A DNA stretch of 64,000 nt, taken from the IMG/VR virus record IMGVR_UViG_3300025536_000012, positions 3,496 to 67,495 of that record. The stretch is one strand, 5' to 3'. The stretch comes from a virus. Position numbers and translations under genes: made by a program. The notes under the pieces are model-generated. The model saw nothing but the letters and a program-made list of their open reading frames with translations. It ran no database searches and had not been told where the DNA came from. Below are positions 2,204 through 59,047 of the stretch, in pieces; positions within the stretch are counted from its first letter, which is position 1; each line of letters starts with the position of its first letter.

Positions 2204-2704
2204 ATGTCGGACGGGGATACCCTGGGCGGATTCAATCCAGCCAGGAAAAGCGCGTATGAACAAATGGCTCAGGTAGTCCGCAACTTCACGCGGGACATGC
2301 CTGAGCTTAACCGTCTCATCCGTGGAGTGGAGAGCTCGAATCGGCTGATCTTCTGGGCAATTGATGATGCCGTAGAAGATTGGAACACCACACCTCCGCT
2401 TATTGGCCCCGTCAGTATCGAGAGTCATCCGGCTCGTCGTCTACTGATGCGAGGAGCGGTAATTCACCTCCTCGAGTCCGTAGGCCTTCTACAGACTCGC
2501 AACCACCTGACGTTCTCGGACGGCGGTATTCAGGTTGGCGTGAGCGACAAGACCCCACTCATTCATGCCTGGCTTCAATATTTCAAGAACGACTACGAGC
2601 AGAAGAAGCTTCGGCTCAAGGTATCGTTGAACATCGAAGCTGCTTGGGGCGGTGGTGTACATTCCGAGTATCTTTGGGTCAACGGTTTCTACGGAGGTTG
2701 GTAA
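2204..2704 (+). CDS. hypothetical protein (166 aa)
   Basis: ORF immediately follows the previous stop. Confidence 0.55.
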   Translation: MSDGDTLGGFNPARKSAYEQMAQVVRNFTRDMPELNRLIRGVESSNRLIFWAIDDAVEDWNTTPPLIGPVSIESHPARRLLMRGAVIHLLESVGLLQTRNHLTFSDGGIQVGVSDKTPLIHAWLQYFKNDYEQKKLRLKVSLNIEAAWGGGVHSEYLWVNGFYGGW

Positions 2705-2861
2705 CTCATGGCTCTTGCAAATCATCGTCTTCGAATTTTCCAGACCGCCAAGGAACTGGAGACATTCATTCGTACTGATGCCGCTATCTTGACGATCGTT
2801 AGCATTCATCAAGACAACAGCGGCGGATATATCCTCATCTTCACGGTCTAAAGGGGGGAAC

Positions 2862-4676
2862 ATGGGACGCGAAAACTCATTCAAGATGTACGAAGAACCG
2901 ATCCGCACGGAGTATCGCGAATCGGATTCTCGTGACATCGAGAACTTCTACGAGGGGCTTACCAATCGTAGGACCAAAGTCGCCCAACTCGGTGATGCTT
3001 CCGTTGCCTTCATCACGATGAAGAAGCATGCGATGGAGAAATGCGCCAAGTGCGGATCCACAATGATGAAGGAGAAATGCTCCAACGCTGATTGTGGTGA
3101 AGTGAAGATGGCTGGACTCATCAGCTCCGCTAAAGGCGTCGGCACTCGAGCTCTGAATGCGGTTAAGAAGAATCCTGCCATCACTGGAGCTGCTGTTGGA
3201 GCTGCGGGTGGAGCCATTGCTGGTGGCCCCGATCACCGTCTCAGTGGCGCCGCGGCCGGTGCTGGTCTTGGCGCCGCTGCTGGTCACGGAGCTGGAAAGC
3301 TGATGGCTCGAGGTGCTGCAAAGGCGGCACCGGCAGCAGCTGCGAAAGCGGCTCCGGCGGTAGAATCAATGGCGAACCCGGCAAACGTTGTTTCTTTGCC
3401 AAATCCAAACAAAACAGCCGTGATGCCAGCCAAGGGTCCGCACAACATCACCAAATCGTATGGTCCAGGAGAAGCTCCAGGATCTATGTCTGCCGCACCT
3501 GCTACGCCAGCACCGGCTCCGTCTGGTCCTACTCCTGTTCCCTGGGAAGCAGCACCAGGAACCGCTCGTGCTCAAGTACAAGCAGCGGCAAACCTGCCGA
3601 TGCCAGCAGGAGCTCGTACATCGGGTCTCGCCGAACCCGGAAGAGTACCAACTATGCCTTCTACTCCTGTAGCTAAAGGCACGGCTCCTGGAGTGGCAAA
3701 CCAATCTCCCGATGCTGTTGCAGCAGCGCGCCAGGAAATGATGGGTGGAACCCCCATGGGAGTTGGGCAGGCCAAGGGAACTGGTCCCGCTCCTGGATGG
3801 GTTCCTCCGCCCTCGAATAAAACGCAAGTCATGCAGAAAGCCGCGGCTTGGCTGCCCCCTTTCGTCGTAGCTGATGGTCCCTCGAATGCCGCTTCAAGCG
3901 GTGGGCTGTCGGCTGTGAAAGTAGCGTTCAAGATGCCGAAGATTCCTGCCTCGACCATCACCAACATCGTCGAGGAGATGGCAGATCTTGGTCGTCGCAA
4001 GCTGCAATCCGAACTGTCTGTTCAGGCAGAGAAGAGAAGGCGGAAGGAGAAGAACGCTTCTCCCTACGATGACACTTCGCTCATGGACATGAGACAGAGG
4101 GCAGCTGAAAAGTATCCAGAACGGGTGTCTCCTATCGAGGCAATCCGTACCGATTTCAAGAAGGCGTTGAAACTTCTCTCGGACAAAGTTCACGATCTCA
4201 GAACAGAACGAACGGATATCGCTTCTCCGAAGATTGCCATGCAGAACATCCTTCATCATGATGTTCCTCTCAACGCAAATGAGTTTCGAGCTCATCGAGA
4301 GAAGATTGCTGCCGAAGCCGGACTCGACATGAAGGAGATGGCTCAGATGGGCGGTATGCCCAAGACTCTGATGACTCCTAGAGGTGCCGGCTTTGCTGGT
4401 GCCGGAGCTCTCATTGGCGGAGCGATGGGATTTCTAGGTTCTCGTGGCAAGCCAGAGCTCGGTGGTAAAAGCAAGGTTGAGGTAGAGCTCGGAGCTGCAC
4501 GCGATCGTCAACCCGAGAAACCCGATGGTATCGGCGCCACGATCGGAAAACACGTCACTAACATCCACGCCGATGTCGCAGAGCAGATGAGAAAGCATCC
4601 TGTTGTCGCTACTCTCACGGGTGCCGGCGTTGGAGCCGGTCTTGCTCTTCGCGTCGCTTCTATGCTCGGTAAGTGA
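2862..4676 (+). CDS. Ala/Gly-rich virion-associated protein (604 aa)
   Basis: Long ORF with an SD (aaggggggaacATG). Extended AGAAVGAAGGAIAGG and AAAKAAPA tracts, plus a zinc-ribbon-like CAKCGS...CSNADCG. Confidence 0.6.
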   Translation: MGRENSFKMYEEPIRTEYRESDSRDIENFYEGLTNRRTKVAQLGDASVAFITMKKHAMEKCAKCGSTMMKEKCSNADCGEVKMAGLISSAKGVGTRALNAVKKNPAITGAAVGAAGGAIAGGPDHRLSGAAAGAGLGAAAGHGAGKLMARGAAKAAPAAAAKAAPAVESMANPANVVSLPNPNKTAVMPAKGPHNITKSYGPGEAPGSMSAAPATPAPAPSGPTPVPWEAAPGTARAQVQAAANLPMPAGARTSGLAEPGRVPTMPSTPVAKGTAPGVANQSPDAVAAARQEMMGGTPMGVGQAKGTGPAPGWVPPPSNKTQVMQKAAAWLPPFVVADGPSNAASSGGLSAVKVAFKMPKIPASTITNIVEEMADLGRRKLQSELSVQAEKRRRKEKNASPYDDTSLMDMRQRAAEKYPERVSPIEAIRTDFKKALKLLSDKVHDLRTERTDIASPKIAMQNILHHDVPLNANEFRAHREKIAAEAGLDMKEMAQMGGMPKTLMTPRGAGFAGAGALIGGAMGFLGSRGKPELGGKSKVEVELGAARDRQPEKPDGIGATIGKHVTNIHADVAEQMRKHPVVATLTGAGVGAGLALRVASMLGK

Positions 4677-5776
4677 GGAATACCATGGACAACTGGCTCG
4701 TCAAATTCGCATCCAAACAGCCCACTCAGATGACGCAGTTTCGTCAACAGGTGGAAACTCTTCCGCTCAACGAGCTCAGAGATTTGGTGGGTCCATCTCC
4801 AACAGGGAACGTCGACTCGTTCCAGGAGAAGGCGGCTTCTGCCATTCAAACTGGACGTCAGATGGCCCATCAAGTGGGTCCTCAACTCGTAGAGAAGACT
4901 GCTCAGGAAGCAGCAGAAGCACGAGCGATCTCTAACACTATCAGTGCTCTCTCTGATGAAGATGCCATCAAGGTGGCTCATGTTCTAGAGCACGGTTCCG
5001 AAGTCGAAAAGATCGCCGTTGTCGGTAAACTAATGCAAATGGCCGGTAAGGGACTCAAGGCCGTTGGTGGCTTCGCTGCCAAGCGTCCGGGTATGGCTGC
5101 CGCTATTGGTGGGGCAGGTATCGGTGCAATGATGGGTGGAGAAGGTAATCGCCTTGGCGGAGCTCTTGGTGGTGCGGCTCTTGGTGGTATGGGCGCCAAG
5201 ATGATTCCAGGAGCTGGGCAGAAGATCAAGAATCTAGGATTCGGAATGGGTCTTCACGGTCAGGGAATGATCAACAAGGGCATGGCCAAGATGGCTGAAG
5301 AGGTCACTGGCCTCTACAAAGTCGCCTTTGGCCTCGCGGCCAAGTGCGGAGGTTTTGGTGAAGACACCAGCTGGCTGACTCAGTTCGAGGGTTCACCGCT
5401 TCTCGAACAGGCCATTGGTTTGGCCGAGCAAGAACTCCAGATCGAGATTCAAGGCATTCAGAAAGCGCAACAGCGTCAGCAAGAAAGCCGTGATGACGAT
5501 TCGTGGACGCAGCGAGACATCATTGGTGCACGCAAGAAGCTCCTCGAACTCCAGCTTGTTTCTCAACGCAATGGTCTCGGTCAGCAGCAGGAATCCGAAG
5601 CGGCTCCTCCACAAGATCCACAAACACAGCCCCCACAACCCACTCCCAATCAGGGAGCTCAAGGACAGCAGCCACCTCAGGGTGTAGGTGGTCCTGGCGG
5701 TGTGCAGATGCCAATAGGTCAGCAGAAGCAAGCTTCCGCAAAAGTTGCTTCTCTCCCTTTTTCGGCACGTCGCTGA
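4673..5776 (+). CDS. glycine-zipper-rich protein with Gln/Pro-rich C-terminus (367 aa)
   Basis: ATGA overlap with the previous gene. GGAGIGAMMGGEGNRLGGALGGAALGGMG glycine-zipper stretch. Confidence 0.6.
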   Translation: MRNTMDNWLVKFASKQPTQMTQFRQQVETLPLNELRDLVGPSPTGNVDSFQEKAASAIQTGRQMAHQVGPQLVEKTAQEAAEARAISNTISALSDEDAIKVAHVLEHGSEVEKIAVVGKLMQMAGKGLKAVGGFAAKRPGMAAAIGGAGIGAMMGGEGNRLGGALGGAALGGMGAKMIPGAGQKIKNLGFGMGLHGQGMINKGMAKMAEEVTGLYKVAFGLAAKCGGFGEDTSWLTQFEGSPLLEQAIGLAEQELQIEIQGIQKAQQRQQESRDDDSWTQRDIIGARKKLLELQLVSQRNGLGQQQESEAAPPQDPQTQPPQPTPNQGAQGQQPPQGVGGPGGVQMPIGQQKQASAKVASLPFSARR

Positions 5777-5877: not shown

Positions 5878-6144
5878 ATCGATGGCCATCGTAGTCAGAT
5901 CGCTGCGTCTGAGGGTGGTTCCGTTGATTCAGTTCTAGACCGTCACAAGAAGGTGAAGCAGAGCGTTGGTGACTCGATGAAGATCGCCATGCTTCCCATT
6001 CATCCTCCTGCGGATCCAGAAATCCAGCAGAAATGGCGTGGTCGTCCTCCCAAGATGAAGGATAGTACGTCGGTCATGGGTGCCATGGAGAACACCAACT
6101 CGATGTTGTCTCCTGCCTCTACAACGACGGGACCGACGCAATGA
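5878..6144 (+). CDS. hypothetical protein (start uncertain)
   Basis: Open frame after the stop at 5776; first ATG at 5878. Overlaps the next start (ATGA). Confidence 0.35.
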   Translation: MDGHRSQIAASEGGSVDSVLDRHKKVKQSVGDSMKIAMLPIHPPADPEIQQKWRGRPPKMKDSTSVMGAMENTNSMLSPASTTTGPTQ

Positions 6145-7040
6145 GGTTGAAGGTCACCAAATTATACGCTCGAAGCTTCGATCTCGATTATCTCGATCTC
6201 TACTGGGAGATCGAATCGTTCGAAAGAGCGCAGGACGTCATCACTGCCTACGAGTTCACGATCCTACGATCTGAATCTCCAGAAGGCCCATTCAACAAAT
6301 TGGCTGGTCCGTTCAAGGATCAGTATCGATTCCGAGACTTCAGCCAGAACCTCCTCCACAAGTGGAGACAGCTCTACTACAAGCTCCAAATCCGTCATGT
6401 TCCAACTGACGAAACGGTGGATGCAGGAGTCTGCACGCTCGAGGCAGAGCCAGATCTGATTGCTCTCGAGATCCAGCGTCAAGAAGACGTCCTCTTTCGA
6501 GAGTTTGTTGGACGTCCGTGTTGGCTTTTTCCTGTTCGTATGTTTGGAGAGAAGTGCACGTGTTTCGATCGAGTCATGAACCGTCAGACTCACTCGAACT
6601 GCATCACCTGTTTCGATACTGGATTCATTGGTGGGTATATGACGCCCATCGAGATCTGGATGCAGATCGATCCAGACTCCGGTAATCCTCAAAACACCTC
6701 AATTATCGGCGAGATTCAACCAAAGAACACTTCATGTCGTGTTGGTCCCTATCCACCCATCAAGGCTAAAGACCTCATAGTCGAAGCCGAGAACAGGCGT
6801 TGGAAGGTGGTCACACAATCCGGAACAGAGAGACTACGAGCCATTGTTCACCAAGAGCTCTCACTCCACCTCGTAGTGAAGGGCGACGTTGAATTCAAGC
6901 TTCCAATCAACATCTCAGATTTGAGACGTACATGGGCGCAAGAAAGAAACTTCACTAACCCTCAACACGTCGACGACATGGACTACAAGGAGAGCGAGCT
7001 GCTGGATATCTACGACGGCAGCCCGCGAGGTGCCCAGTGA
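6141..7040 (+). CDS. Cys-cluster virion protein (299 aa)
   Basis: CTCFD...HSNCITCFD cysteine cluster. Sits inside the structural block. Confidence 0.55.
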   Translation: MRLKVTKLYARSFDLDYLDLYWEIESFERAQDVITAYEFTILRSESPEGPFNKLAGPFKDQYRFRDFSQNLLHKWRQLYYKLQIRHVPTDETVDAGVCTLEAEPDLIALEIQRQEDVLFREFVGRPCWLFPVRMFGEKCTCFDRVMNRQTHSNCITCFDTGFIGGYMTPIEIWMQIDPDSGNPQNTSIIGEIQPKNTSCRVGPYPPIKAKDLIVEAENRRWKVVTQSGTERLRAIVHQELSLHLVVKGDVEFKLPINISDLRRTWAQERNFTNPQHVDDMDYKESELLDIYDGSPRGAQ

Positions 7041-7369: not shown

Positions 7370-8129
7370 TAGCGTTCCGAGCGTACCTAGCCCTCAAGGT
7401 TTTGGTGAAGACCCGTATCTCTACTTCACTAAAGTCTACCTGACCTATCTCCAAGGTCTTTTTCGTCAATTCCCATCCGGCAGCTTCAAGTGGTCGGATA
7501 ATGAAGAAGACACGGAGATTATGATTACGGACCAATCCCCGATTCCTCGGGACCGTATCGAGCAGAGGCCGGCTTTGGTGACCTCCCGTGGTCCTGCTCA
7601 GTTTGCAGGGATGACCTTGGACCAACTTCGAAGTGTTGACCGTCGAACCGGAACTCGTGAGCATACGGATCTTGTGGCTTGCACCATGACGATCAATTGC
7701 ATCGCCAAGACAGGTCTCGAGGCACAGCGCCTTGGGTGGATAGTTCAGCGCCATCTCGGAATTGCGAACGGGAAACGACTTCTTCAGAAAGCTGGGATTC
7801 ACAAAATCTCAGACAATATCGGCTGTAGTGCAGAAACCCCTCCCGGCGCATTGGTCGCACCAGAACCAACTATAGAGATGGTCAACGTTTGCGTTACTAG
7901 TCCCTTTTTCTTCCAGTGGACCGAAAAAGTGACACCTCTCGACGCTGCTACCTTCGAAGCAGCAGAAGTGTATATGCAGGCGAACCTGCATCCGTTACCA
8001 CTAGAGGAAGAACTGACGAAGGCCCGAGAATCTACGATCTACAACAGAGCTCCAACGATTCGTGGAGTTCCGATTACGGGGCAGGCTGTTTCACTCGACA
8101 ACCCCATCAAGACCAAGGTCAAGATCTAG
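7353..8129 (+). CDS. hypothetical structural protein (258 aa)
   Basis: ORF overlapping the previous stop. Confidence 0.5.
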   Translation: MTADRSSVPSVPSPQGFGEDPYLYFTKVYLTYLQGLFRQFPSGSFKWSDNEEDTEIMITDQSPIPRDRIEQRPALVTSRGPAQFAGMTLDQLRSVDRRTGTREHTDLVACTMTINCIAKTGLEAQRLGWIVQRHLGIANGKRLLQKAGIHKISDNIGCSAETPPGALVAPEPTIEMVNVCVTSPFFFQWTEKVTPLDAATFEAAEVYMQANLHPLPLEEELTKARESTIYNRAPTIRGVPITGQAVSLDNPIKTKVKI

Positions 8130-8146
8130 TATGAGGAGCATTTAAG

Positions 8147-11100
8147 ATGGCCGAACTTCCAAGACCGGGCGTCGAAGTCATTCAGCAGTTTCAAGCTGCT
8201 TCACCGACTGTCCTGAACCCCACACTTGTTCCGTTCGTAACGGGACCCGCAAAAGAAATCGTCGAGTTCCTGAACTCAGACGGTTCCATCAACACAGGTG
8301 CCAAGCAGGGTACTTACGAGCAGCTTCCACAGGTAGTTGCCCAGAGTGCCTTTCCCTCCCCACGCAGCAACATTGCTGAAGTGAATGTCGAGGAAGGTAC
8401 CATTGAGGCAGCTATCCTATTCGGAGGAAAGCTCTCTCAGCTCGATCGCGACCCCGGCTCTGCCTTCTTGGTGGGCTGGAACAATGCTCGTCGTGCGGCC
8501 TATCGTTCTCCAGAAATCACTGGTGCCGGACTCGCTCTCGACGGTTTGACTCTTGTCATCGCCATCGACCAGACGGTTCGTCTGAACGTACTCAGCGATA
8601 TCGCTATCACCTTCGCCACAGTCGGAGGCGGTAACCTCACCGCTGCACAGATCGCAGACCAGATCAACGATGCCGTTGGTGAAGACGTCGCCTCTGTCAT
8701 CGAAGTCGGTGCTAACTTCCGTGTTCAGATCGCCTCGACCCTTTGGGGAGCTGGCTCTTCTGTCACCATTCGTGCCGGCGGTTCTGCTAACGCTCTGATG
8801 GTATCCCTCACCGACTCGGTCGAATACCGTGTGGAGGCCGCAGGCTTCTACGCCCAAGATCAGGTCGATAACACCACTCTCTCGCCGTACATTGTCTGGA
8901 GTCGGGGTGTTAAATACCTCGACGGTGTTGCTACCGCCTTCGGAGTGGCCCTGGCTGCCGACGCCAGCTTTGGTCAGATCTACCTCGACTCGAGCGACGT
9001 TGAAACCTACGAGGAAGCTCAGGCTTCGAACATCACCTTCACTGGTGGCGGTTCAATCGATCTCAAGGTCGGCGATTACTTCGTTGTGGATGGCGTTCGT
9101 CCGAACACGTCCGCTGAAGTCTCTCGTGTGGAGACGACTCGCTTCAAGCTTGGAATCATTAACACAGCGCTCTCCACGTTCGATGACGATGGGGATATCC
9201 TGACTGCCGTCTACGACGACAGCAAGGTCAACACTCTTCTCTCCAGCGTCCCATTCTCTCCGCACTATGCGTGGTTCAAAGCCCGTAAGCTTGCGGGAGA
9301 GAATGTCGCTGCCACCGCAGCAACGATGACCGGCACCAAGCTGGGAACTCCTGCAACGGTTGCAACTATCCTCGGCGTCGGTGCCGGTGCTGGTCCATTC
9401 GCTCTTGCTGGTCTGACTCTCAAGACCACACTCACGCTGGATGGAGAAATTCAGGACCAGTATACCTTCACCTTCACAGGTGGACCCTTCGCCGACATGG
9501 CAGCCGTTGTTGCGGTGATCGATATCGATGGGATTGTGGCTTTGGACGCTTCCGGCCAGCTCCGTCTATCGACCACAAGCACTGGTGCTGATCAGGCTCT
9601 GAGTCTAGATACTGGATCATCCGCAGCAGCCGTTCTCGGATTCGCAGCTCTTCCGACCTCTGATATCGGAACTGATGTCGAATTCAAAGATATGGCTGCT
9701 GTTCTGACAGGTGCAGCTCAGACTTTCGCGTTCACTGGAACGATCGGTCATACCCTTCTAGTCGATGTATCGACCGATGGGGGGCTCACCTATCCAGTTA
9801 CGAGGACCTTCACGCATGATGCGGGGTCGATCGGTCCTCATGCCAACATTACCGCTCTTATCGCTGCTCTCAACACAGCAGCTCGATGGGATGGCGGTGT
9901 TTTCCCAACCCAGTTCACGATCACGAACACCGGTAACCAAGTCGTTATCACCTCTACCGCAACGGGCGGTGGTGTGGCTCTTCGGATTGGTGCTGCTTCT
10001 ACCGGTATCTTGCCGGGTGCAACAAATGCCCAGCTTCAGTTCGCTGCTAGTGTTGCTGACATCGGTGAAGAAAACCTTCAGGGTCTCACCCTCAAGCTAC
10101 GCCTTAACGATCGTCCAGACATCTACTCCGTAGTCTTTCAATCCGACTCACTGGATGATGCGGTTGCTGAGATCAACGAGGTTATCGGCTTCTCTGTTGC
10201 CTCTATCGGAGGCGGTTCTCTTAGTCAGCTCGTACTGACGAGTCCTTTGGAAGGTGCGGCCTCCAGGATCGAAGTCGTTGACGATACAGTCAACATCCGC
10301 GGCTATTTGGCCTTCGGTTTCACCTCGAATCAGTCGGCTGTCGGTACTGGTCGTCCCAACCCGGATTTCCGGGTCGACGACTTGGGTAATGCCCTCATTG
10401 GAGGAGAGCTTCTCCGCAATGCAGTGACGGGCAATCCATTCAGCAACTCGATCGCAGACCTGTACATCCAGTACACCGGTCTCCGTCTCGACGTATCTCC
10501 CCTGGCAGCCAGCCCAGCTCTTCTCTCCATCAGCGACGTCACGACCCTCGAGCAGGTTCTCGGTCCTCTGAACCAGAACAATCCTCTCGGTCTCGCGATG
10601 TTCTTTCAGATCATCAACGCCCCCGGCATCGCTTGCAAGGGTATGGGTGTTTCTGGATCTTCTGCTGCGGAGCCCGAAGGAACGTTGACCGCGTACACGC
10701 AGGTCGCCTCGTTCATTCAAAGCGAAGAAGTCTACGCAATCTGTCCTCTGACGTCAGCACAGACCGTTCATGAAATGTTCACAACTCACGTGGGCTTCAT
10801 GTCCGGAGCGGCTCAGAAGGGCGAGCGTATCCTCATCACGTGTCCGCTGGATCCTCTTCGCGATAACGACACTGTCGTATCTTCTGGTCTTTCGGCCAAC
10901 ACTACGGCTACTCCGAACCAGCTCACTCTAGATACGAACCCCAATCAGGGTCTCATCGACAACGGTATCAACCCAGCTCTTCCGATCGATGAGGAAGACG
11001 AGGTCTATATCGAGCTAGCTGTAGTCGTTGGAGCCCTACAGGAGGTTCGTCGATACAGTGTTGCCTCGGTGAATGGTGTCCTCACCACGTTCCGTACGAC

Positions 11101-11869
11101 GTTCACGGGAGACTTCAACATCGACGGTTTCTACACCACGACTCCACTCACGGAGACGTTGGTGAACGCCAACTGGTCAATGGAGATCCGTGGATCCGAG
11201 CTCCTGATCCCTGGCTCTACACTACTCGACAAGGATCGGGTTGCCGCAACAGTAGCTGCTCGAAGCGAATCGATCGGCAATCGTCGAGTCATCTCCCTGT
11301 TCCCCGATACCGTAGTAGCGGTGGTCGAGGGTTCAGATCAGGAGCTCGAGTCATTCTACTACGGTGCCTGCATGACCGGCATGGTGGCCTCAAATCCACC
11401 ACAGCAGGGATTCACCAACCTACCCTCGACGGGCTTCACTGGTGTGAAGGGCTCGCAAGACTCCTTCTCTACCTCGCAGCTCAACATCATGGCGGGTGGT
11501 GGAACGTATATCATCGTTCAGGATGCCCAGGGCGGTCCGGTTACCTGTCGTCATCAGGTCACAACCGACCTGACTTCTACGGAAACCAGAGAGTTCTCTA
11601 TCACCAAGATCGTGGACTTCGTTGCGAAGTTCATGCGTACAGGTCTCCGGAACTACATCGGAACGTTCAACATCACCCAGCCGTTCCTGGACATGCTGTC
11701 TACAGTCATTCAGGGACAACTTTCCTTCCTGGAGGAAGGTGGTGTTATCCTCGGCGGTGACCTGAACAACCTGATTCAGGACAAGGACAATCCGGACACC
11801 GTCATTGTCGACATCACTCTCGACGTTCCCTACCCCTGTAACTACATCCGCCTCACCCTCGTGATCTAA
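8147..11869 (+). CDS. large tail-sheath-like structural protein (1240 aa)
   Basis: Strong SD (gaggagcatttaagATG). The N-terminus MAELPRPGVEVIQQF resembles the conserved PG(I/V)Y/E start of contractile-sheath proteins. Long, Thr/Ala/Gly-rich with internal repeats. Confidence 0.45.
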   Translation: MAELPRPGVEVIQQFQAASPTVLNPTLVPFVTGPAKEIVEFLNSDGSINTGAKQGTYEQLPQVVAQSAFPSPRSNIAEVNVEEGTIEAAILFGGKLSQLDRDPGSAFLVGWNNARRAAYRSPEITGAGLALDGLTLVIAIDQTVRLNVLSDIAITFATVGGGNLTAAQIADQINDAVGEDVASVIEVGANFRVQIASTLWGAGSSVTIRAGGSANALMVSLTDSVEYRVEAAGFYAQDQVDNTTLSPYIVWSRGVKYLDGVATAFGVALAADASFGQIYLDSSDVETYEEAQASNITFTGGGSIDLKVGDYFVVDGVRPNTSAEVSRVETTRFKLGIINTALSTFDDDGDILTAVYDDSKVNTLLSSVPFSPHYAWFKARKLAGENVAATAATMTGTKLGTPATVATILGVGAGAGPFALAGLTLKTTLTLDGEIQDQYTFTFTGGPFADMAAVVAVIDIDGIVALDASGQLRLSTTSTGADQALSLDTGSSAAAVLGFAALPTSDIGTDVEFKDMAAVLTGAAQTFAFTGTIGHTLLVDVSTDGGLTYPVTRTFTHDAGSIGPHANITALIAALNTAARWDGGVFPTQFTITNTGNQVVITSTATGGGVALRIGAASTGILPGATNAQLQFAASVADIGEENLQGLTLKLRLNDRPDIYSVVFQSDSLDDAVAEINEVIGFSVASIGGGSLSQLVLTSPLEGAASRIEVVDDTVNIRGYLAFGFTSNQSAVGTGRPNPDFRVDDLGNALIGGELLRNAVTGNPFSNSIADLYIQYTGLRLDVSPLAASPALLSISDVTTLEQVLGPLNQNNPLGLAMFFQIINAPGIACKGMGVSGSSAAEPEGTLTAYTQVASFIQSEEVYAICPLTSAQTVHEMFTTHVGFMSGAAQKGERILITCPLDPLRDNDTVVSSGLSANTTATPNQLTLDTNPNQGLIDNGINPALPIDEEDEVYIELAVVVGALQEVRRYSVASVNGVLTTFRTTFTGDFNIDGFYTTTPLTETLVNANWSMEIRGSELLIPGSTLLDKDRVAATVAARSESIGNRRVISLFPDTVVAVVEGSDQELESFYYGACMTGMVASNPPQQGFTNLPSTGFTGVKGSQDSFSTSQLNIMAGGGTYIIVQDAQGGPVTCRHQVTTDLTSTETREFSITKIVDFVAKFMRTGLRNYIGTFNITQPFLDMLSTVIQGQLSFLEEGGVILGGDLNNLIQDKDNPDTVIVDITLDVPYPCNYIRLTLVI

Positions 11870-11922: not shown

Positions 11923-12366
11923 ATGCCCGCAATCTTTGGTGCAGGAAATCAAGCTCTCGCAGCCGTTCAGAGCCTGGCAAACCGTGGCGACAACCTCGCA
12001 ACGGTTATCATGTCCATGCTCAACAACACCTACTACCTGGCAATGGTGCCTGGTGCAGAAGCTGGTGGCGGTGCCGCTGCCAACTCCATTCGTGTTGCCT
12101 GTCAGGTTCGAGATCAGGATGGCAGTGCCGTTGCCGGAATCAAGAACATCCTCATCACGTCGAAGCCGATCGCAGGAGCTGGTACCATTACCGATGGTGG
12201 TGCCGGTGCCGTCGTCGCTGGCTCTGCTTCGGTTTCGTGTTGGATGACCACCGATGCAAATGGTGCCCTTCAATTCGACGTGCTCAACGCTTCTGCCGAG
12301 ACCAACCTCGTGAAGGCAGAGCTCGACAACGGCACTACGGAGATCATTGTTCTCACCTTCGCCTGA
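11923..12366 (+). CDS. Ig-like domain protein (147 aa)
   Basis: SD (caggagataccaATG). A beta-rich SIRVACQVRDQDGSAVAG pattern is typical of Big/Ig-like folds. Confidence 0.5.
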   Translation: MPAIFGAGNQALAAVQSLANRGDNLATVIMSMLNNTYYLAMVPGAEAGGGAAANSIRVACQVRDQDGSAVAGIKNILITSKPIAGAGTITDGGAGAVVAGSASVSCWMTTDANGALQFDVLNASAETNLVKAELDNGTTEIIVLTFA

Positions 12367-12412
12367 GTCTGGCGGACTCTGATAGAATCGGAATCACCTC
12401 TTAGGAGACAAC

Positions 12413-13126
12413 ATGTCGAAGCTTTCAGAGTGGGCGCCATACAACCGGTACGTTCAAGGCGGACTGGTCGACGGACAGTTCTTGTCCGCTGCCTACACCC
12501 TCCTTGCAGCCGGTCCTCCTCGTCTCGCCAACATCGGCGGTGCAACTGGTGCTGCCGCTGCTCTGTCGAGCTCGGGGGCTGGCCAGGACTTCGCGATGCC
12601 TATCGGCGTCGTTCAGAACGTCAACCTGGCCCACAACCGTTCATTCGCCCGCTTCTGGGAACTTGGAAGCGAGCGTTCGTACTTCATCTCTGGACGCACC
12701 GTGGGACAGCTTGGGCTCTCTCGAGTCATGTATCACGGCCCTTCGCTGCTCAGGATGCTGTACGCATACTACCAGGACCTCTTGCCGCCTACGGTGGTAC
12801 CCTTCGTCTTCCCGAATCCGGGTGTCGTGACGCAGGCCAACCCCCACAACGTCAAGATCCCTCCTGGTTACGAGAACCTCTACCTGAACCTCGCCTCGGA
12901 TCTCTTCAGCCAGCCTGTTGGCATGCTGATGTACTTCCGTGACTCGAATGAGGATACGGTCGGCGCCATCTACATGGAGGAGTGCTACATCCCTTCGCAT
13001 ACCATTGCGACGGATGCTGGTGGTACTGTTATCCAGGAGTCGGCAGCCATCCAGTTCGAACGAGCAGTTCCTGTTGCAGTGAGCTCGCTGGCTCTCATCA
13101 CGGGTCAGTTCGATCCGAATGGCTAA
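12413..13126 (+). CDS. possible tail tube protein (237 aa)
   Basis: SD (taggagacaacATG). Position and size fit a tube protein downstream of the sheath; no motif proof. Confidence 0.35.
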   Translation: MSKLSEWAPYNRYVQGGLVDGQFLSAAYTLLAAGPPRLANIGGATGAAAALSSSGAGQDFAMPIGVVQNVNLAHNRSFARFWELGSERSYFISGRTVGQLGLSRVMYHGPSLLRMLYAYYQDLLPPTVVPFVFPNPGVVTQANPHNVKIPPGYENLYLNLASDLFSQPVGMLMYFRDSNEDTVGAIYMEECYIPSHTIATDAGGTVIQESAAIQFERAVPVAVSSLALITGQFDPNG

Positions 13127-13144
13127 AAAATAGCTGAGGGACAA

Positions 13145-14293
13145 ATGGATATCGAACTCGCCCAACAAGTCTTCAAGCGCTTCGCAAATGGACAGCCAGT
13201 TGCGGAGCAGCTTTTCTATAAAGCAGCTTCAGCCCTCGAGCTCAATCCGGATGATGCGTTGTTCGAAGCGCGATTCTACACTTGCCTCGATCACGATCTG
13301 AAGAAGATCGCCTCGGGTCGCGTGCTAGATGATGCCTCGGTGATGCTCTACTGCGCTGCCGCTGGCTTCAATCCATACGAGTTGGTGAAGACGGCTTCGG
13401 CCTATGCTCTTCATCCACTCAACCTCGCCATGGAGGTTCTCGAGCAGAAGAACTGGGTTCCAGATCTTCGAATGCTCAAGATCGCCATGATGGCTCCAGC
13501 TATGGATGATGGCTCGATGGCCCAGGGAGATCCAATGGCAATGGATCCTGCGGCGGCTGGTGGTGCGGCTGCTGCGCCTCCTCCTGGACAAGATCCAGCA
13601 ATGGCAGGACCGCAGGCAGGTGCTGCTGTTCAACAAGATCCGATGCGTCGGTTCAAGCCTTCTCCAATGGCTCCTGTTCAAGTTCCTCCTTCGAATGATG
13701 GAGGAAACATGCAGGAGCTTGCGAATTCGGCTCGTCATCCAGAAGCTGGCGCTGGAATGGCTGGTGGAATGGGATCTGAGGCTGGTGGCGACAGCATGAT
13801 GTCTGCTGCCGGTCCAATGGATCCCGCTCCTCCGATGCCCCCAGACCAGAAGCTTCTCGCTGTTCAGGCGAACATTCCTCCTGAAGCGCTCAATCGCTGG
13901 GCAGGAAAGCTGGCGGAGCTCGAAAAGCAGGTCGGCATGTCTGTCGATGACCCTGCACAGCTTGCGAAGTTCATCGCTCAGATGCAGAAGGATGATGGAA
14001 AGATGGTTGATGAGGCCATCAAGAACATGGCTGTACAGACAGCTCCTGTTCGTCCCACCATCCAACAGCAGGCTGCACAGCAAGCACAGGGAGGAGGACC
14101 TCCTGGTGGTTCTCCTGGTGGAGCCCCGCCGCCTCCATCGAGCGATGGCGCACAAGGAGCAGCGGGAGGACAGCCTCCGGCTGGGGGCCAACCGCCGCAG
14201 AAGCCTGCTCCCAAGAAACCAGCTCCTCAGCAACAAGCGCAACAACAGCAGCCTCAACAAGAGAAGATGGCAAAACGTGCGTGGATGCCCTGA
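13145..14293 (+). CDS. low-complexity Met/Pro/Ala/Gln-rich protein (382 aa)
   Basis: Globular N-terminus followed by MAPAMDDGSMAQGDPMAMDPAAAGGAAAAPPPGQ and QQQAQQQQPQQ tracts. Confidence 0.5.
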   Translation: MDIELAQQVFKRFANGQPVAEQLFYKAASALELNPDDALFEARFYTCLDHDLKKIASGRVLDDASVMLYCAAAGFNPYELVKTASAYALHPLNLAMEVLEQKNWVPDLRMLKIAMMAPAMDDGSMAQGDPMAMDPAAAGGAAAAPPPGQDPAMAGPQAGAAVQQDPMRRFKPSPMAPVQVPPSNDGGNMQELANSARHPEAGAGMAGGMGSEAGGDSMMSAAGPMDPAPPMPPDQKLLAVQANIPPEALNRWAGKLAELEKQVGMSVDDPAQLAKFIAQMQKDDGKMVDEAIKNMAVQTAPVRPTIQQQAAQQAQGGGPPGGSPGGAPPPPSSDGAQGAAGGQPPAGGQPPQKPAPKKPAPQQQAQQQQPQQEKMAKRAWMP

Positions 14294-56477: not shown

Positions 56478-56538
56478 AGCAAAGAAAACCGTATCCATTT
56501 GGGTATGCTAATTTTTTGGTAAGTGATACTGTCTGTTC

Positions 56539-57933
56539 ATGAACTCGGTAGAGCTTGCGGCCTTCAGCGACGAGCTGATGAAGATTGCTGCCGACAAGGA
56601 AAAACCCTTCTGGCAAAAAGCACTGCCATTTGCTGCGGCGGCCGGTGCTGGAGTCCTTGCCTACAAAGGCTTGAGGACACCATCCTTTTCCAAGAACCCG
56701 GCGTTACGGAAAGTTCAAGAGCTCGCATCTAGCAAAGGCTTCCACCGTATCGTCGACGTGACTCCTGATGGAACTGGTGGATTTCTTCGTCCTGTTGCTG
56801 ATGCTCAGGGCAAGCTCTCGCCATTGAACAAGGCCAAGCTGTTCCTGAACGAAGGAACTACAGAAGCCATTCCGATCACCTACACCCCGAACCAGGCGGG
56901 TAATTACTCCACCAAGGTTGTTGGTCAGAAAGGTCCGAGACAGGTAGAGGGTGTCGTTCATGGACGTCCTGATATTTACGGACGTGACAAGGCGGTTCGC
57001 GGAGGTGTGGATGTCGAAGGTACCCCTGAGGTGCAGAGAGCGATGACCAACCTTGCTGCGGGTGGAAAGAGGAGTGAAGCAGATCTCCTCAGCAAGCACG
57101 CCCCTGAAGCAATCCCAGAGACCTTCACGGATCTATCTCCGATGTTCAAGAAGCTCCCGAAGGATCGGCAGCAAGCCATCAACGAGCTCCGTAACAGAAT
57201 CAGAGCAGCCCATGGAGAGAATGTTCTACTGAAGCCGAACCAGGGCCTGTCTTCTGGAGGCAAATTTCCTCGATCCAATCAAGACTGGGGAGCTCAACTT
57301 CGGACCTACGACGAACACATGGCAGATCCAGTCAAGAGAAAGGCGTATCGAGCTCTGAAGGGTGAGGACAATGCTCTTGCCGATTATTCGAAAGAACATG
57401 GATTGTACGAGGGCAGTGTGCTTCACAATGCGCTCAAAGATCCGAAGTCGATGCTTGCTCAGAAGATAGTAGACAATCCAATGGGCGAGTGGAGAGTGCA
57501 TACTGTTGCAGGAGAAGCTCCGAGAGGGTTGATGACTCCCAGGTTCGCTAGCAACCCAGCAAAGACTCTAGCTGCTCGTGCCGGTGTTGGAGATGCCAGC
57601 ACCAAAGAACTCCAGCAATTCGTAGAGCAGGATATTCTACAGAAACTACCAAAAAATTATCGCGAGGGTAACTACGCCTTCGATGTCATGCCACATCGGA
57701 AGCCTGATGGCTCCATCGGGTTCAAGACCATCGAGATGAATCCAGCGGAGAGAGCGAAGAGCCAGAGTCTATCTGGTGGAGGATCGGGGTTCTTGGATAC
57801 AGCAGCCTCTCCGTTCTCTGGACTAAAACATTACCGCGCCGTAACTGGCAGACATACACCCCTAGTTGCTGGACTAGGAGCCGCCGGAGCCGCAGGCGCT
57901 ACCGGAGCAGTTACAGGGACCGTGGGCGAATGA
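56539..57933 (+). CDS. ATP-grasp superfamily ligase (RimK/GshB-like) with N-terminal extension and Gly/Ala-rich tail (464 aa)
   Basis: NVLLKPNQGLSSGGK matches the ATP-grasp P-loop-like VIKP..G.GG. EWRVHTVAGE matches the (D/E)xRV.VVGGE strand. YAFDVMPHRKPDGSIGFKTIEMNP matches the G.D......G..(V/I)E(V/M)N..P catalytic region. Confidence 0.6.
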   Translation: MNSVELAAFSDELMKIAADKEKPFWQKALPFAAAAGAGVLAYKGLRTPSFSKNPALRKVQELASSKGFHRIVDVTPDGTGGFLRPVADAQGKLSPLNKAKLFLNEGTTEAIPITYTPNQAGNYSTKVVGQKGPRQVEGVVHGRPDIYGRDKAVRGGVDVEGTPEVQRAMTNLAAGGKRSEADLLSKHAPEAIPETFTDLSPMFKKLPKDRQQAINELRNRIRAAHGENVLLKPNQGLSSGGKFPRSNQDWGAQLRTYDEHMADPVKRKAYRALKGEDNALADYSKEHGLYEGSVLHNALKDPKSMLAQKIVDNPMGEWRVHTVAGEAPRGLMTPRFASNPAKTLAARAGVGDASTKELQQFVEQDILQKLPKNYREGNYAFDVMPHRKPDGSIGFKTIEMNPAERAKSQSLSGGGSGFLDTAASPFSGLKHYRAVTGRHTPLVAGLGAAGAAGATGAVTGTVGE

Positions 57934-58393
57934 TCAGTCCTTCGTTGTTCCATCGCTTCTCGAACTGAGAGATCGAGCTCTCACGGAATAACTGACTTTT
58001 CCAACTTGGATCAGACAGGTAGACCGTGTCCTCTTTCTCGTCGATGGCGTAGACAACTCCGTAGTGATCTCCGTCCAGGCCAACCATCACTACATTGTCT
58101 GTAGCGATAGCCTTTACCAGATCTCTCCAGGACATCTTCGGTCTTCGGCCAACACGCATCCCATGAGAACGTAGGAAGCGTATGACTGGAGCCTCTGCTG
58201 TCCCGTCCGAATCCGTCTTGAGCTTCTCGTACACCTCTCTGTAGCTGACATCGACTCCGAAGAACGAAGTGATGGCATATACACAACACGGCCCGCAGGT
58301 GTACGACGTGAACTGAAACTTACGCGGAAAGTCTGCAAACCCGACGAGAGAATCTGATCTCTTATCGGGGATGCCGAGAAGTAGACCCAGCAT
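57911..58393 (-). CDS. C39-like (papain-fold) cysteine peptidase domain protein (160 aa)
   Basis: YTCGPCCVYAITSFFG matches the Peptidase_C39/C39_2 catalytic-Cys block (N.CGP..L.M.L.YYG). DGDHYGVVYAID supplies the His block. Its 3' end overlaps the ATP-grasp gene convergently by 23 nt. Confidence 0.6.
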   Translation of the reverse strand: MLGLLLGIPDKRSDSLVGFADFPRKFQFTSYTCGPCCVYAITSFFGVDVSYREVYEKLKTDSDGTAEAPVIRFLRSHGMRVGRRPKMSWRDLVKAIATDNVVMVGLDGDHYGVVYAIDEKEDTVYLSDPSWKSQLFRESSISQFEKRWNNEGLIIRPRSL

Positions 58394-58396
58394 TCT

Positions 58397-58597
58397 TCAC
58401 CACGAGTCGAGATCGGTACGATTCCTCAAGCCGTTGACCGCGGCGCCCAAGAAGAACGCCAGGACAGCGACCACCGCAACCGTCGACTTCTTGATTCCCG
58501 CCCTCACGACGATGGGATCTAGGATGATGAGCTCGACGACCTTGGGGCCGATGTTGGTAGCGATCTCGGAAGCAACCTTTGGAACTTGTGCAAGCAT
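58397..58597 (-). CDS. small membrane protein (66 aa)
   Basis: Class-B promoter, leader and SD (aggaggagggttcATG). TM segment TVAVVAVLAFFLGAAV. Confidence 0.5.
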   Translation of the reverse strand: MLAQVPKVASEIATNIGPKVVELIILDPIVVRAGIKKSTVAVVAVLAFFLGAAVNGLRNRTDLDSW

Positions 58598-58684: not shown

Positions 58685-59047
58685 ATGCCGACCAAGGTAA
58701 CAGAATCGACTGAAGAAGAAGTCAGAGACCATTACATCAAGTTTTTAGAGGGACTAGTCGATAAGGCAAAATCTGGAGAGATGGTCTTTCGAAGTATCAA
58801 CCAAGCAATGCCGTATGTGCAGGTCTATGATAACGAGACGGAGAAGTGGGAACACTTCCGCATCGGAAGTAGAACTCTGGGTTGGATCTACGAATGTCCA
58901 GCTCAGGACGAATTGGAACGAGCTCGATTAAAGCAGTTCTTGGTTGACCATCCCAAAGCAGAAGTCATCAAAGAAAAGAGTGCCGAAGATACCGCTAGAG
59001 AGTTACGCGCTTTGGTTGAAGGTAGCAAAAGAAACGGGCTCGAGTAG
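58685..59047 (+). CDS. hypothetical protein (120 aa), plus strand
   Basis: ORF divergent from the class-B promoter region. Followed by a T-rich bidirectional terminator-like sequence (ccctctgatctgttttttcg). Confidence 0.45.
   Translation: MPTKVTESTEEEVRDHYIKFLEGLVDKAKSGEMVFRSINQAMPYVQVYDNETEKWEHFRIGSRTLGWIYECPAQDELERARLKQFLVDHPKAEVIKEKSAEDTARELRALVEGSKRNGLE

Follow-up and report, generated by a model that had tools for sequence, protein, structure and literature searches.

What would a large phage do with an ATP-grasp ligase and a C39-type cysteine peptidase that are encoded tail to tail? This question is raised by a locus in a 64,000-nucleotide stretch of the viral record IMGVR_UViG_3300025536_000012 (positions 3,496 to 67,495 of that record; the whole stretch is referred to here as the window). 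The phage to which the window belongs is large and myovirus-like; the window encodes a major head protein, a 1240-aa sheath-like protein and the large subunit of a topoisomerase II. The initial annotation had interpreted the locus as a module of the graspetide type, producing a peptide that is ribosomally synthesized and then modified post-translationally (RiPP), and had mentioned the modification of a phage or host protein as an alternative. The analysis described here shows that the two genes form a conserved convergent pair, and that the alternative fits the evidence better than does the RiPP reading. The interpretation that we prefer, at a likelihood that we would place a little short of even, is that the pair comprises an amide ligase for proteins or peptides, used in conflict with or takeover of the host, together with a dedicated C39 processing protease of large phages. 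The pair occupies the following positions:

56539-57933, plus strand: ATP-grasp ligase gene (464 aa), open reading frame (ORF) confirmed

57911-58393, minus strand: gene for a stand-alone Peptidase_C39 protein (160 aa; Pfam PF03412), ORF confirmed

57911-57933, both strands: convergent overlap of the ligase and C39 3' ends (23 nt), from the ORF coordinates and the sequence

The strongest result of the analysis is the pairing itself. Related loci (given L-numbers here, with W for the window) were gathered by exact-protein look-ups and pattern scans, and the ORFs of all loci were scanned with hidden Markov models built from the ligase and C39 alignments. Among distinct phage-like loci with sufficient flanks and a close homologue of the ligase, an opposite-strand C39 gene was found just downstream of the ligase gene in 13 of 13 (W, L001, L003, L004, L005, L010, L011, L012, L014, L015, L018, L024 and L025), and so the conservation in related phages that had been proposed as a check is borne out. 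L019 was left out of the count because its sequence ends before the C39 position. The ligases of the paired loci are 38-62% identical to the window protein. In L003 the ligase gene belongs to a run of plus-strand genes and the C39 gene, the sole minus-strand gene there, is still convergent with it; in L012 and L018 one additional gene lies between the two; and the tail-to-tail order is kept where the ligase is fused into proteins of 983-1482 aa. The 3' ends overlap by 17-83 nt in five loci and are separated by gaps of 14-40 nt in the others, so that the conserved feature is the tail-to-tail order and not the overlap. An all-against-all BLASTP comparison of ORFs of at least 25 aa (window positions 50-64 kb against L001-L005) revealed no shared flanking ORF besides the ligase and C39 genes.

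This invariable convergent coupling to a free C39 protein in the large-phage contigs examined (133-212 kb) is new. Neither query protein, the 464-aa ligase or the 160-aa C39 protein, had a DNA or protein match in 50,697 deposited phage records, text searches of the literature found no paper linking an ATP-grasp enzyme, C39 and phages, and a 212,233-bp contig carries a C39 protein identical to that of the window. It could be argued that the genes are adjacent by chance and functionally unrelated, since each enzyme family is also found without the other and genes on opposite strands are not co-transcribed. However, the same order recurs in every paired locus, down to 38% ligase identity and among otherwise unrelated flanks, and it persists when the ligase is part of a much longer protein, which makes chance adjacency hardly credible.

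The arrangement within the window agrees with what the initial annotation had described. The 23-nt overlap of the 3' ends was recovered, and the minus strand carries nearly every other long ORF from 15 to 64 kb of the window, which makes the 464-aa plus-strand gene an exception and upholds the statement that it is encoded opposite to nearly everything around it. No terminator and no stable or unusual RNA structure was found in the overlap of the ligase and C39 genes, and no promoter motif common to plus-strand genes was found. A terminator-like hairpin followed by a T-run is present at 56490-56516 (plus strand), in the intergenic region between divergent genes; the start codon of the ligase follows after only ~20 nt, and the ligase gene has no obvious Shine-Dalgarno sequence.

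The ligase belongs to a family that is large and hidden from annotation. The 464-aa protein has 29 homologues, with E-values down to ~1e-170, and a profile search of 1.84 billion representatives returned 354 ligase-family clusters at 50% identity. No match to the protein was found in Pfam, PHROGs, NCBIfam or PADLOC; no PDB sequence was matched with either the single protein or a 27-sequence profile as query; and not one of the 27 close homologues matched an ATP-grasp model of Pfam, even at E≤1. The existence of a large ligase family that is invisible to curated models, Pfam included, is new. The AlphaFold2 model of the ligase, calculated from the family alignment, is confident (predicted local distance difference test score 89, predicted template-modelling score 0.85). 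Foldseek matches of this model include Ddl, LysX/ArgX, VanA and CdnC at E-values of ~1e-5 to 1e-4, with D-Ala-D-Ala ligases on top, and the RAGNYA domain and protein-kinase/PIPK-like domain that together define the ATP-grasp fold are both predicted. The catalytic part of the protein is as follows:

57214-57798, plus strand: predicted ATP-grasp catalytic core (aa ~226-420), with K232, S239/G241/F243, Q308, E317-x-R319, D382 and E399-x-N401 invariant

In amide-bond formation by ATP-grasp enzymes, a carboxylate is activated with ATP to an acyl-phosphate, which is then joined to an amine. The catalytic template of the superfamily consists of a lysine at the end of the RAGNYA domain's strand 2, an acidic residue in strand 4 of the kinase-like domain and an ExN motif at the end of strand 5 of that domain (Burroughs et al., 2015; PMC4431377). 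In the alignment of 27 sequences the columns K232, S239, G241, E317, R319, D382, E399 and N401 are all invariant, and K232 (within an L-K-P motif), D382 and E399-M-N401 supply the strand-2 lysine, the acidic residue and the ExN motif, respectively; these residues were assigned to strands from their motifs and the secondary structure of the model, and not by residue-level superposition. A further motif, E317-W-R319-V-H with an invariant R319, is located on model strand 317-321 as expected of ATP-grasp enzymes, and the arginine of such an ExR motif is the mark of the clade that holds most peptide and amide ligases (PMC4431377). The Gly-rich loop is conserved in the family as G-L-x-S-G-G-x-F-P, in which S239, G241 and F243 are invariant and position 242 is variable.

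Since the model, the Foldseek matches and the invariant catalytic columns agree, an ATP-grasp fold with an intact predicted active site, and hence predicted catalytic competence, is well supported. The motifs that had been noted at the outset (LLKPNQGLSSGGK, EWRVHT, FDV and IEMNP) are present and coincide with invariant columns of the alignment. The proposed affiliation to a RimK/GshB type could be upheld as far as the ATP-grasp fold is concerned; RimK and GshB themselves gave no profile match and no distinctly closer structure. Taken together, the first gene of the pair encodes a very divergent ATP-grasp enzyme whose motifs place it in the amide-bond-forming clade, and for which amide-ligase chemistry is the probable activity.

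A comparison with other divergent ATP-grasp enzymes of phages is instructive at this point. The R2K clade (Cdc123, R2K.2 and R2K.3) is known from phages, jumbo phages among them, and its hallmarks are the loss of the Gly-rich loop, the loss of the linker lysine and the gain of a second Lys or Arg just after the strand-2 lysine (Burroughs et al., 2015; PMC4431377). Both R2K and the present family are divergent, phage-borne and predicted to modify proteins in conflicts. Distant relatives of the ligase show weak matches to the Pfam models R2K_3 and R2K_2 (E-values of 1e-5 to 4e-3; 6 of 10 match R2K_3 below threshold, and one reaches 26.3 bits, which equals the cut-off), whereas the close family has no match to the R2K models at E≤1. 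Moreover, the phage ligase retains the Gly-rich loop (S239 and G241) and a standard ExN motif and has no conserved second Lys or Arg after K232, and so the features that define R2K are not those of this family. A mostly basic position, K/R187 (Gln or His in a few members), is found 45 residues upstream of K232.

The second protein of the pair can be assigned from its sequence directly. The 160-aa protein matches Pfam PF03412 with an E-value of 1.6e-14 and 54.3 bits (cut-off 22) over profile positions 6-131 of 133, and also matches C39_2 more weakly; all C39 orthologues examined carry PF03412, and the best PDB sequence matches are the C39 domains of PCAT1 and ComA. Nine aligned C39 orthologues all have Q27, C33, H110 and D128, and in PCAT1 and ComA these residues are matched by the Q...CG, H and DP positions, such that Q27 corresponds to the oxyanion glutamine and C33, H110 and D128 to the catalytic triad of the family. 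The Cys and His blocks on which the initial identification of a stand-alone C39-like peptidase had relied fall on C33 and H110, and that identification is confirmed. No signal peptide and no transmembrane segment is predicted in the 160-aa protein, and the C39 proteins of the ligase loci are free-standing and 141-230 aa long. Because the catalytic residues are invariant and targeting or membrane segments are lacking, the protein is probably a soluble and active enzyme, that is, a predicted catalytically complete double-glycine-type cysteine endopeptidase with no ABC (ATP-binding cassette) transporter attached. Members of the C39 family cleave after Gly-Gly, Gly-Ala or Gly-Ser.

Relatives of the peptidase also occur in cellular surroundings. 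A stand-alone C39 protein ~41% identical to that of the window is encoded in the Myxococcus fulvus 124B02 chromosome (CP006003.1, 9354520-9370978; L022, gene 8001-8459), where it follows, after 105 nt and in the same orientation, a complete type III CBASS (cyclic-oligonucleotide-based anti-phage signalling system) operon comprising AAA, Cap8, HORMA, SMODS and NucC genes. This gene adjoins an IS66 transposase and an integrase fragment, there is no ligase in the locus, and the protein matches no PADLOC component. A second relative without a ligase (L023, gene 6001-6447) lies beside genes for a 1648-aa Type ISP restriction-modification enzyme and an SMC/AAA_13 ATPase.

The regions of the ligase outside the catalytic core contain three conserved helices:

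56545-56589, plus strand: N-terminal amphipathic helix (aa 3-17, VELAAFSDELMKIAA), helical in the model

56620-56664, plus strand: N-terminal Ala/Gly-rich helix (aa 28-42, ALPFAAAAGAGVLAY), followed by a conserved Y-x-x-LRTPSFS (Y-x-x-LRxPxFS in the family)

57856-57927, plus strand: C-terminal Ala/Gly 'glycine-zipper' helix (aa 440-463, TPLVAGLGAAGAAGATGAVTGTVG), shared by 26 of the 27 members

The 200-aa N-terminal extension that the initial annotation had described is for the most part an ordinary, if enlarged, ATP-grasp N-terminal domain, to which ~47 residues of predicted helices are added. The first helix has the form [YF]xxG[AV]xxALxx[YHF][GS][LK] in relatives and constitutes the extreme N-terminus of both the stand-alone and the long members of the family, while the Ala/Gly-rich helix that follows is kept in all members, distant ones included. 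The N-domain has invariant motifs of its own (VRGGxDxEG, GKxxEA and [HY]AP after a basic residue). Behind the catalytic core comes a short helix that contains an invariant T-G with a nearly invariant arginine after it, and beyond the C-terminal Ala/Gly helix there is an acidic tail, with a terminal PHP[VA]G in a more distant C39-linked clade (seen in five members). The order of elements common to the family is therefore amphipathic helix, Ala/Gly helix, N-domain, core, T-G helix, Ala/Gly helix and tail.

Two candidate functions for these and neighbouring segments were considered and rejected. The Ala/Gly helices are not sufficiently hydrophobic to be membrane anchors: the N-terminal one has a Kyte-Doolittle value of ~1.0-1.25 and a median Hessa sum of ~+9 kcal/mol, with no classical transmembrane segment, and the C-terminal one has values of ~1.5 and ~+5 kcal/mol, compared with +0.8 kcal/mol for the membrane segment of a 66-aa protein encoded next to the C39 gene. 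For this reason the helices are treated as glycine-zipper-like or boundary elements. The conserved sequence GGGSGF after the ExN motif was considered as a C39 cleavage site, but it is kept also in ligase relatives without C39 and is more likely to be the usual post-ExN loop.

The view of the ligase as a self-contained cassette comes from its longer relatives. A cluster from the profile search, P0042, combines KTSC, DUF5661, ligase and InPase domains; SNF2 helicase and ligase are fused in P0082 and in L024, the latter also with a convergent C39 gene; P0085 joins LigD_N, a DNA ligase and the ATP-grasp ligase; and in L004 a SNF2 helicase gene abuts the ligase gene. Ligase-containing proteins of 1132-1482 aa with a SWIM zinc finger are encoded in L012, L015, L018 and L019. 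The SWIM-type finger reads CTCKSFKF...CKHI in long fusions (L012 3025-7473, L015 4018-7416, P0029, P0035 and P0036), and some long fusions have an N-terminal MPFKSEAQRRLFH motif or a His-rich motif, HIHSHPEHWTMHEDEH. Pairwise comparison of the long proteins showed that modules are swapped exactly at the Ala/Gly segments: the L015 protein equals residues 59-701 plus 978-1482 of the L012 protein, P0029 corresponds to the latter from ~residue 764 onwards, and the stand-alone ligases correspond to its residues ~975-1482.

InPase, SNF2 and the other fused domains are hallmarks of phage polyvalent proteins. PHROGs with the names DarB-like antirestriction protein, minor head protein and virion structural protein are matched by the InPase portion of P0042, which may point indirectly to packaging in the virion. 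By these sequence comparisons the ligase is a self-contained cassette, and its fusions have a polyvalent-protein-like architecture. A glycine-zipper-bounded ligase cassette within polyvalent-type proteins, as predicted here, is new. According to a published proposal (Iyer et al., 2017; PMC5512222), the polyvalent proteins of phages and conjugative elements act as conflict effectors that are packaged, injected and processed by proteolysis. The resemblance lies in the occurrence of ligase relatives in shuffled multidomain proteins that a linked peptidase could process; the window ligase differs in being a single cassette, and a text search of PMC5512222 showed that the only ATP-grasp enzymes mentioned there are RNA ligases.

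The same type of segment was observed in other proteins. L012 has a gene (7477-8628, plus strand), with an equivalent in L018, for a 383-aa protein located between the ligase and C39 genes, and this protein has an N-terminal motif (LKKLYAQGVQASIDKYGL) like that of the ligase, a C-terminal Ala/Gly helix with a charged tail and no family match. A profile of the N-terminal motif matched the L018 counterpart weakly (domain E-value 0.05) and no other window protein. This gives a hint that the boundary elements may mark a class of C39-associated cargo, and it is kept as a hint because the profile match is weak. The head-sheath structural block of the window encodes two proteins rich in Ala/Gly glycine-zipper segments, one of 604 aa (2862-4676, plus strand) and one of 367 aa (4673-5776, plus strand), which weakly match the Pfam families 'Glycine zipper 2TM' and 'Gly-zipper_YMGG'; the former also has a Cys4 zinc ribbon. 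As the same kind of segment flanks the ligase, it is possible that these two also belong to a class of virion or ejection proteins with glycine zippers. Searches of the window for homologues of SNF2 and of the L012 modules were negative.

The fusions and the cellular relatives of the peptidase have a bearing on a different explanation, in which C39 would be a deubiquitinase-like anti-defence enzyme that strips ubiquitin-like or CD-NTase conjugates or cleaves a defence protein, and the ligase would be unrelated or only loosely coupled to it and modify another target. The closest cellular relatives of the peptidase (~40% identity) do occur in what look like defence islands, with the CBASS operon and the Type ISP enzyme described above, and the ligase cassette is fused to polyvalent-type anti-restriction modules. 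In addition, the Gly-Gly specificity of C39 resembles that of deconjugating enzymes. Nevertheless, the argument depends on two cellular contexts, in one of which the adjacency to IS66 and integrase sequences may be incidental, PADLOC gives no match, and the constant tail-to-tail pairing with the ligase (13/13) is left unexplained. We regard this explanation as rather unlikely.

The genes next to the pair do not appear to extend it. The following two had been named along with the pair in the initial annotation:

58397-58597, minus strand: gene for a single-pass membrane protein (66 aa), ORF confirmed, transmembrane segment at aa 39-57

58685-59047, plus strand: neighbouring ORF (120 aa), ORF confirmed, with nothing that ties it to the module

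The 66-aa gene has a strong Shine-Dalgarno sequence and stops 3 nt before the C39 ATG, and it is probably co-transcribed with the C39 gene. Upstream of it, where the initial annotation had assumed a class-B promoter, there is a single weak sigma-70-like match (9/12), which is within shuffle expectation. The transmembrane segment is borne out by its hydrophobicity (Kyte-Doolittle 2.2, Hessa sum +0.8 kcal/mol); membership of the module is not, as the protein has no homologue in related loci and the gene upstream of C39 is different in each relative. Elsewhere, depending on the locus, this position holds a gene for a protein with a REC domain, for a Myb-like DNA-binding protein, or for one that is either lipoprotein-like or secreted and Cys-rich. 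Small secreted proteins are encoded directly upstream of C39 in L001 (7765-8142, minus strand) and L014 (2641-2991, minus strand); a lipobox-like LMFGC occurs in one, and the other, which is Cys-rich, carries a signal peptide. These two and the 66-aa transmembrane protein of the window are different proteins, all of them envelope-directed. The 120-aa ORF has no family match and no homologue in related loci, and a part for it in the module was not supported.

These neighbours raise the issue of whether the locus serves the cell envelope, with the 66-aa protein and the peptidase forming a holin-endolysin pair, or the peptidase acting on stem peptides, and a Ddl-like ligase acting on wall precursors. 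Several observations are in line with this: C39 matches PHROG 6007 ('endolysin', E-value 5e-7), a gene for a small transmembrane protein is directly upstream of it, D-Ala-D-Ala ligases are the best Foldseek matches of the ligase, and hydrophobic Ala/Gly helices are found at both ends of the latter. On closer inspection the PHROG match covers 41 residues in the Cys-motif region, whereas Pfam C39 spans the domain and the best PDB matches are C39 domains that process bacteriocins. The transmembrane protein has no counterpart in relatives, which together with the 41-residue match sets the locus apart from a holin-endolysin cassette; C39 lacks a signal peptide; membrane insertion is not predicted for the Ala/Gly helices (+5 and +9 kcal/mol); and there is another amidase- or endolysin-like gene in the window, at 34061-34963. 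An envelope role is consequently unlikely. The gene at 34061-34963 (minus strand) encodes a 300-aa protein with weak endolysin/amidase PHROG matches (E-value 3e-7) and is a separate candidate for the phage lysin.

The neighbouring genes also bear on the RiPP reading, according to which the ATP-grasp enzyme would macrocyclize a precursor peptide encoded in trans and C39 would remove its double-glycine leader. ATP-grasp plus double-glycine C39 is the commonest association in graspetide loci (PMC8939145), and some graspetide branches have peptidases and no detectable local precursor. Typical graspetide clusters are composed of a ligase of the MdnB/MdnC type, a precursor peptide and a C39-ABC exporter. 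By comparison, no conserved third ORF was detected within ~6 kb (window flanks against L001-L005), regular-expression searches returned no plausible small ORF with a double-glycine leader in the 64-kb window or the loci, and the flanking small ORFs, the inspection of which had been proposed as a check for core peptides, include none that is conserved. No ABC exporter was called within 6 kb of the pair in any locus, and C39 is not fused to one; it is a stand-alone protein encoded convergently. The phage ligase has neither the signature of a leader-binding ligase family nor any sequence relation to graspetide ligases, and its structure is no closer to them than to Ddl, RimK, TTLL or ITPK1. It is fused elsewhere to SNF2 helicase, DNA ligase, SWIM and InPase modules, and the module is restricted to large, lytic-type phage contigs, the context being that of jumbo phages. 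With no local precursor, no exporter, no conserved third ORF and fusions that are unlike those of RiPP systems, the RiPP reading is weak, and a graspetide-like product, which would need a precursor encoded far from the pair, is improbable. The claim of a graspetide or RiPP module is therefore not upheld, and annotating the pair as a RiPP cluster, tempting as it is, would be a mistake.

The free-standing peptidase likewise departs from its characterized relatives. It resembles the C39 domains of PCAT1, ComA and LahT in the Pfam C39 match and the conserved Gln, Cys, His and Asp residues; unlike them, it is phage-encoded and has no transporter, and no double-glycine leader was found in the locus.

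Returning to the preferred reading, in which the pair is a conflict or host-takeover ligase with its own processing protease, the ligase would act as RimK, LysX or TTL do and attach an amino acid or a peptide to a carboxylate on a protein of the host or the phage, and this modification would serve host takeover or anti-defence. The peptidase could contribute in one of two ways. It may mature the cassette by cutting in or near the flanking helices that are rich in small residues, so freeing the ligase from its terminal helices or from polyprotein forms; alternatively, its cut may generate the terminus, a fresh C-terminal carboxylate or N-terminal amine, on which the ligase then acts. The amphipathic helix and the Gly/Ala-rich helices of the ligase could hold C39 sites, though there is no conserved Gly-Gly at a fixed position.

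A number of observations weigh against this reading. We infer both the protein or peptide substrate of the ligase and the cleavage target of C39, and structural similarity does not separate a protein ligase from a small-molecule ligase (Ddl) or a kinase (ITPK1). The canonical double-glycine leader (LSxxELxxIxGG) was not found in the ligase, and the N-terminus of the window protein, FSDELMKIAAD, has a loose likeness to such a leader with Ala-Asp in place of Gly-Gly (Y-G-L in relatives). The distant ligase relatives of L007, L008 and L021 have no C39 neighbour, and that of L006 is accompanied by no more than a papain-like gene, a divergent one. In the Myxococcus chromosome (L022) and in one other contig (L023), close relatives of C39 are found where there is no ligase. 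Since the ligase is thus found without C39 and C39 without the ligase, each enzyme is able to work without the other. Furthermore, the window ligase is one catalytic module with no polyvalent fusion, several effector domains per polypeptide being found only in relatives (P0042, P0082, P0085, L024, L012, L015, L018 and L019). Finally, PMC5512222 describes, as judged by text search, neither this ligase nor C39, and the processing enzyme there is a zincin MPTase.

With respect to the distant ligases, the neighbouring gene encodes an InPase protein in L008 and a tandem paralogue in L007, where two ligase paralogues of a distant subfamily (2497-3939 and 3932-5002) follow one another with overlapping ends.

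A more specific form of the idea would make C39 the dedicated maturation protease of a new kind of effector cassette delimited by glycine zippers, the ligase then using the exposed terminus or a host carboxylate in a 'cut-and-ligate' type of tagging. Here C39 would cut at the boundaries formed by the amphipathic helix and the Ala/Gly helix in stand-alone and polyprotein ligases alike. We consider this doubtful. If it were true, the system would follow a logic like that of ubiquitin-like or Pup conjugation, with an ATP-grasp enzyme and a double-glycine peptidase as its components.

Should the pair modify host or phage proteins, it would represent a new enzymatic route in the host-takeover and anti-defence repertoire of large phages, and would provide a second protease, besides the zincin MPTases, that is dedicated to modular or polyvalent phage effectors. 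The pair is a defined two-protein system that is open to direct testing.

The individual components have well-known counterparts. Protein-tagging ATP-grasp ligases (RimK, LysX, the TTLLs and, by prediction, Cdc123-like proteins) and cysteine peptidases specific for Gly-Gly are each familiar, and the amidoligase systems of Aravind reportedly also combine ATP-grasp enzymes with peptidases. The pairing of ATP-grasp enzymes with peptidases as a theme, and predicted protein modifiers of the ATP-grasp fold in phages (R2K), are already known. No sequence-profile relation of the phage ligase family to RimK, LysX/ArgX-LysW or TTL/TTLL was detected, and the phage ligase differs from RimK, LysX and TTL in its enlarged N-domain with VRGGxDxEG and GKxxEA, in the Ala/Gly helices at both termini and in its C39 partner. 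Makarova et al. (2022) describe two ATP-grasp branches, 7 and 8, that are similar in that a ligase is tightly linked to a peptidase with no local precursor, and for these it was proposed that the peptidase supplies the substrate by cutting another protein. By their description they are set apart from the phage pair as bacterial loci with peptidases of other families.

Further observations were made in the window and related loci that concern other genes. The tail-sheath-like protein of the window (8147-11869, plus strand) is unusually long at 1240 aa, and the sheath PHROG matches its last ~200 residues only. L004 has a ThyX (Thy1) gene (12567-13485, minus strand) that is split by an intein with an HNH endonuclease, and L005 encodes a protein of more than 893 aa (12014-14286, minus strand) with domains of the Major Vault Protein (MVP_shoulder and, weakly, Vault_3), which is unusual in a phage.

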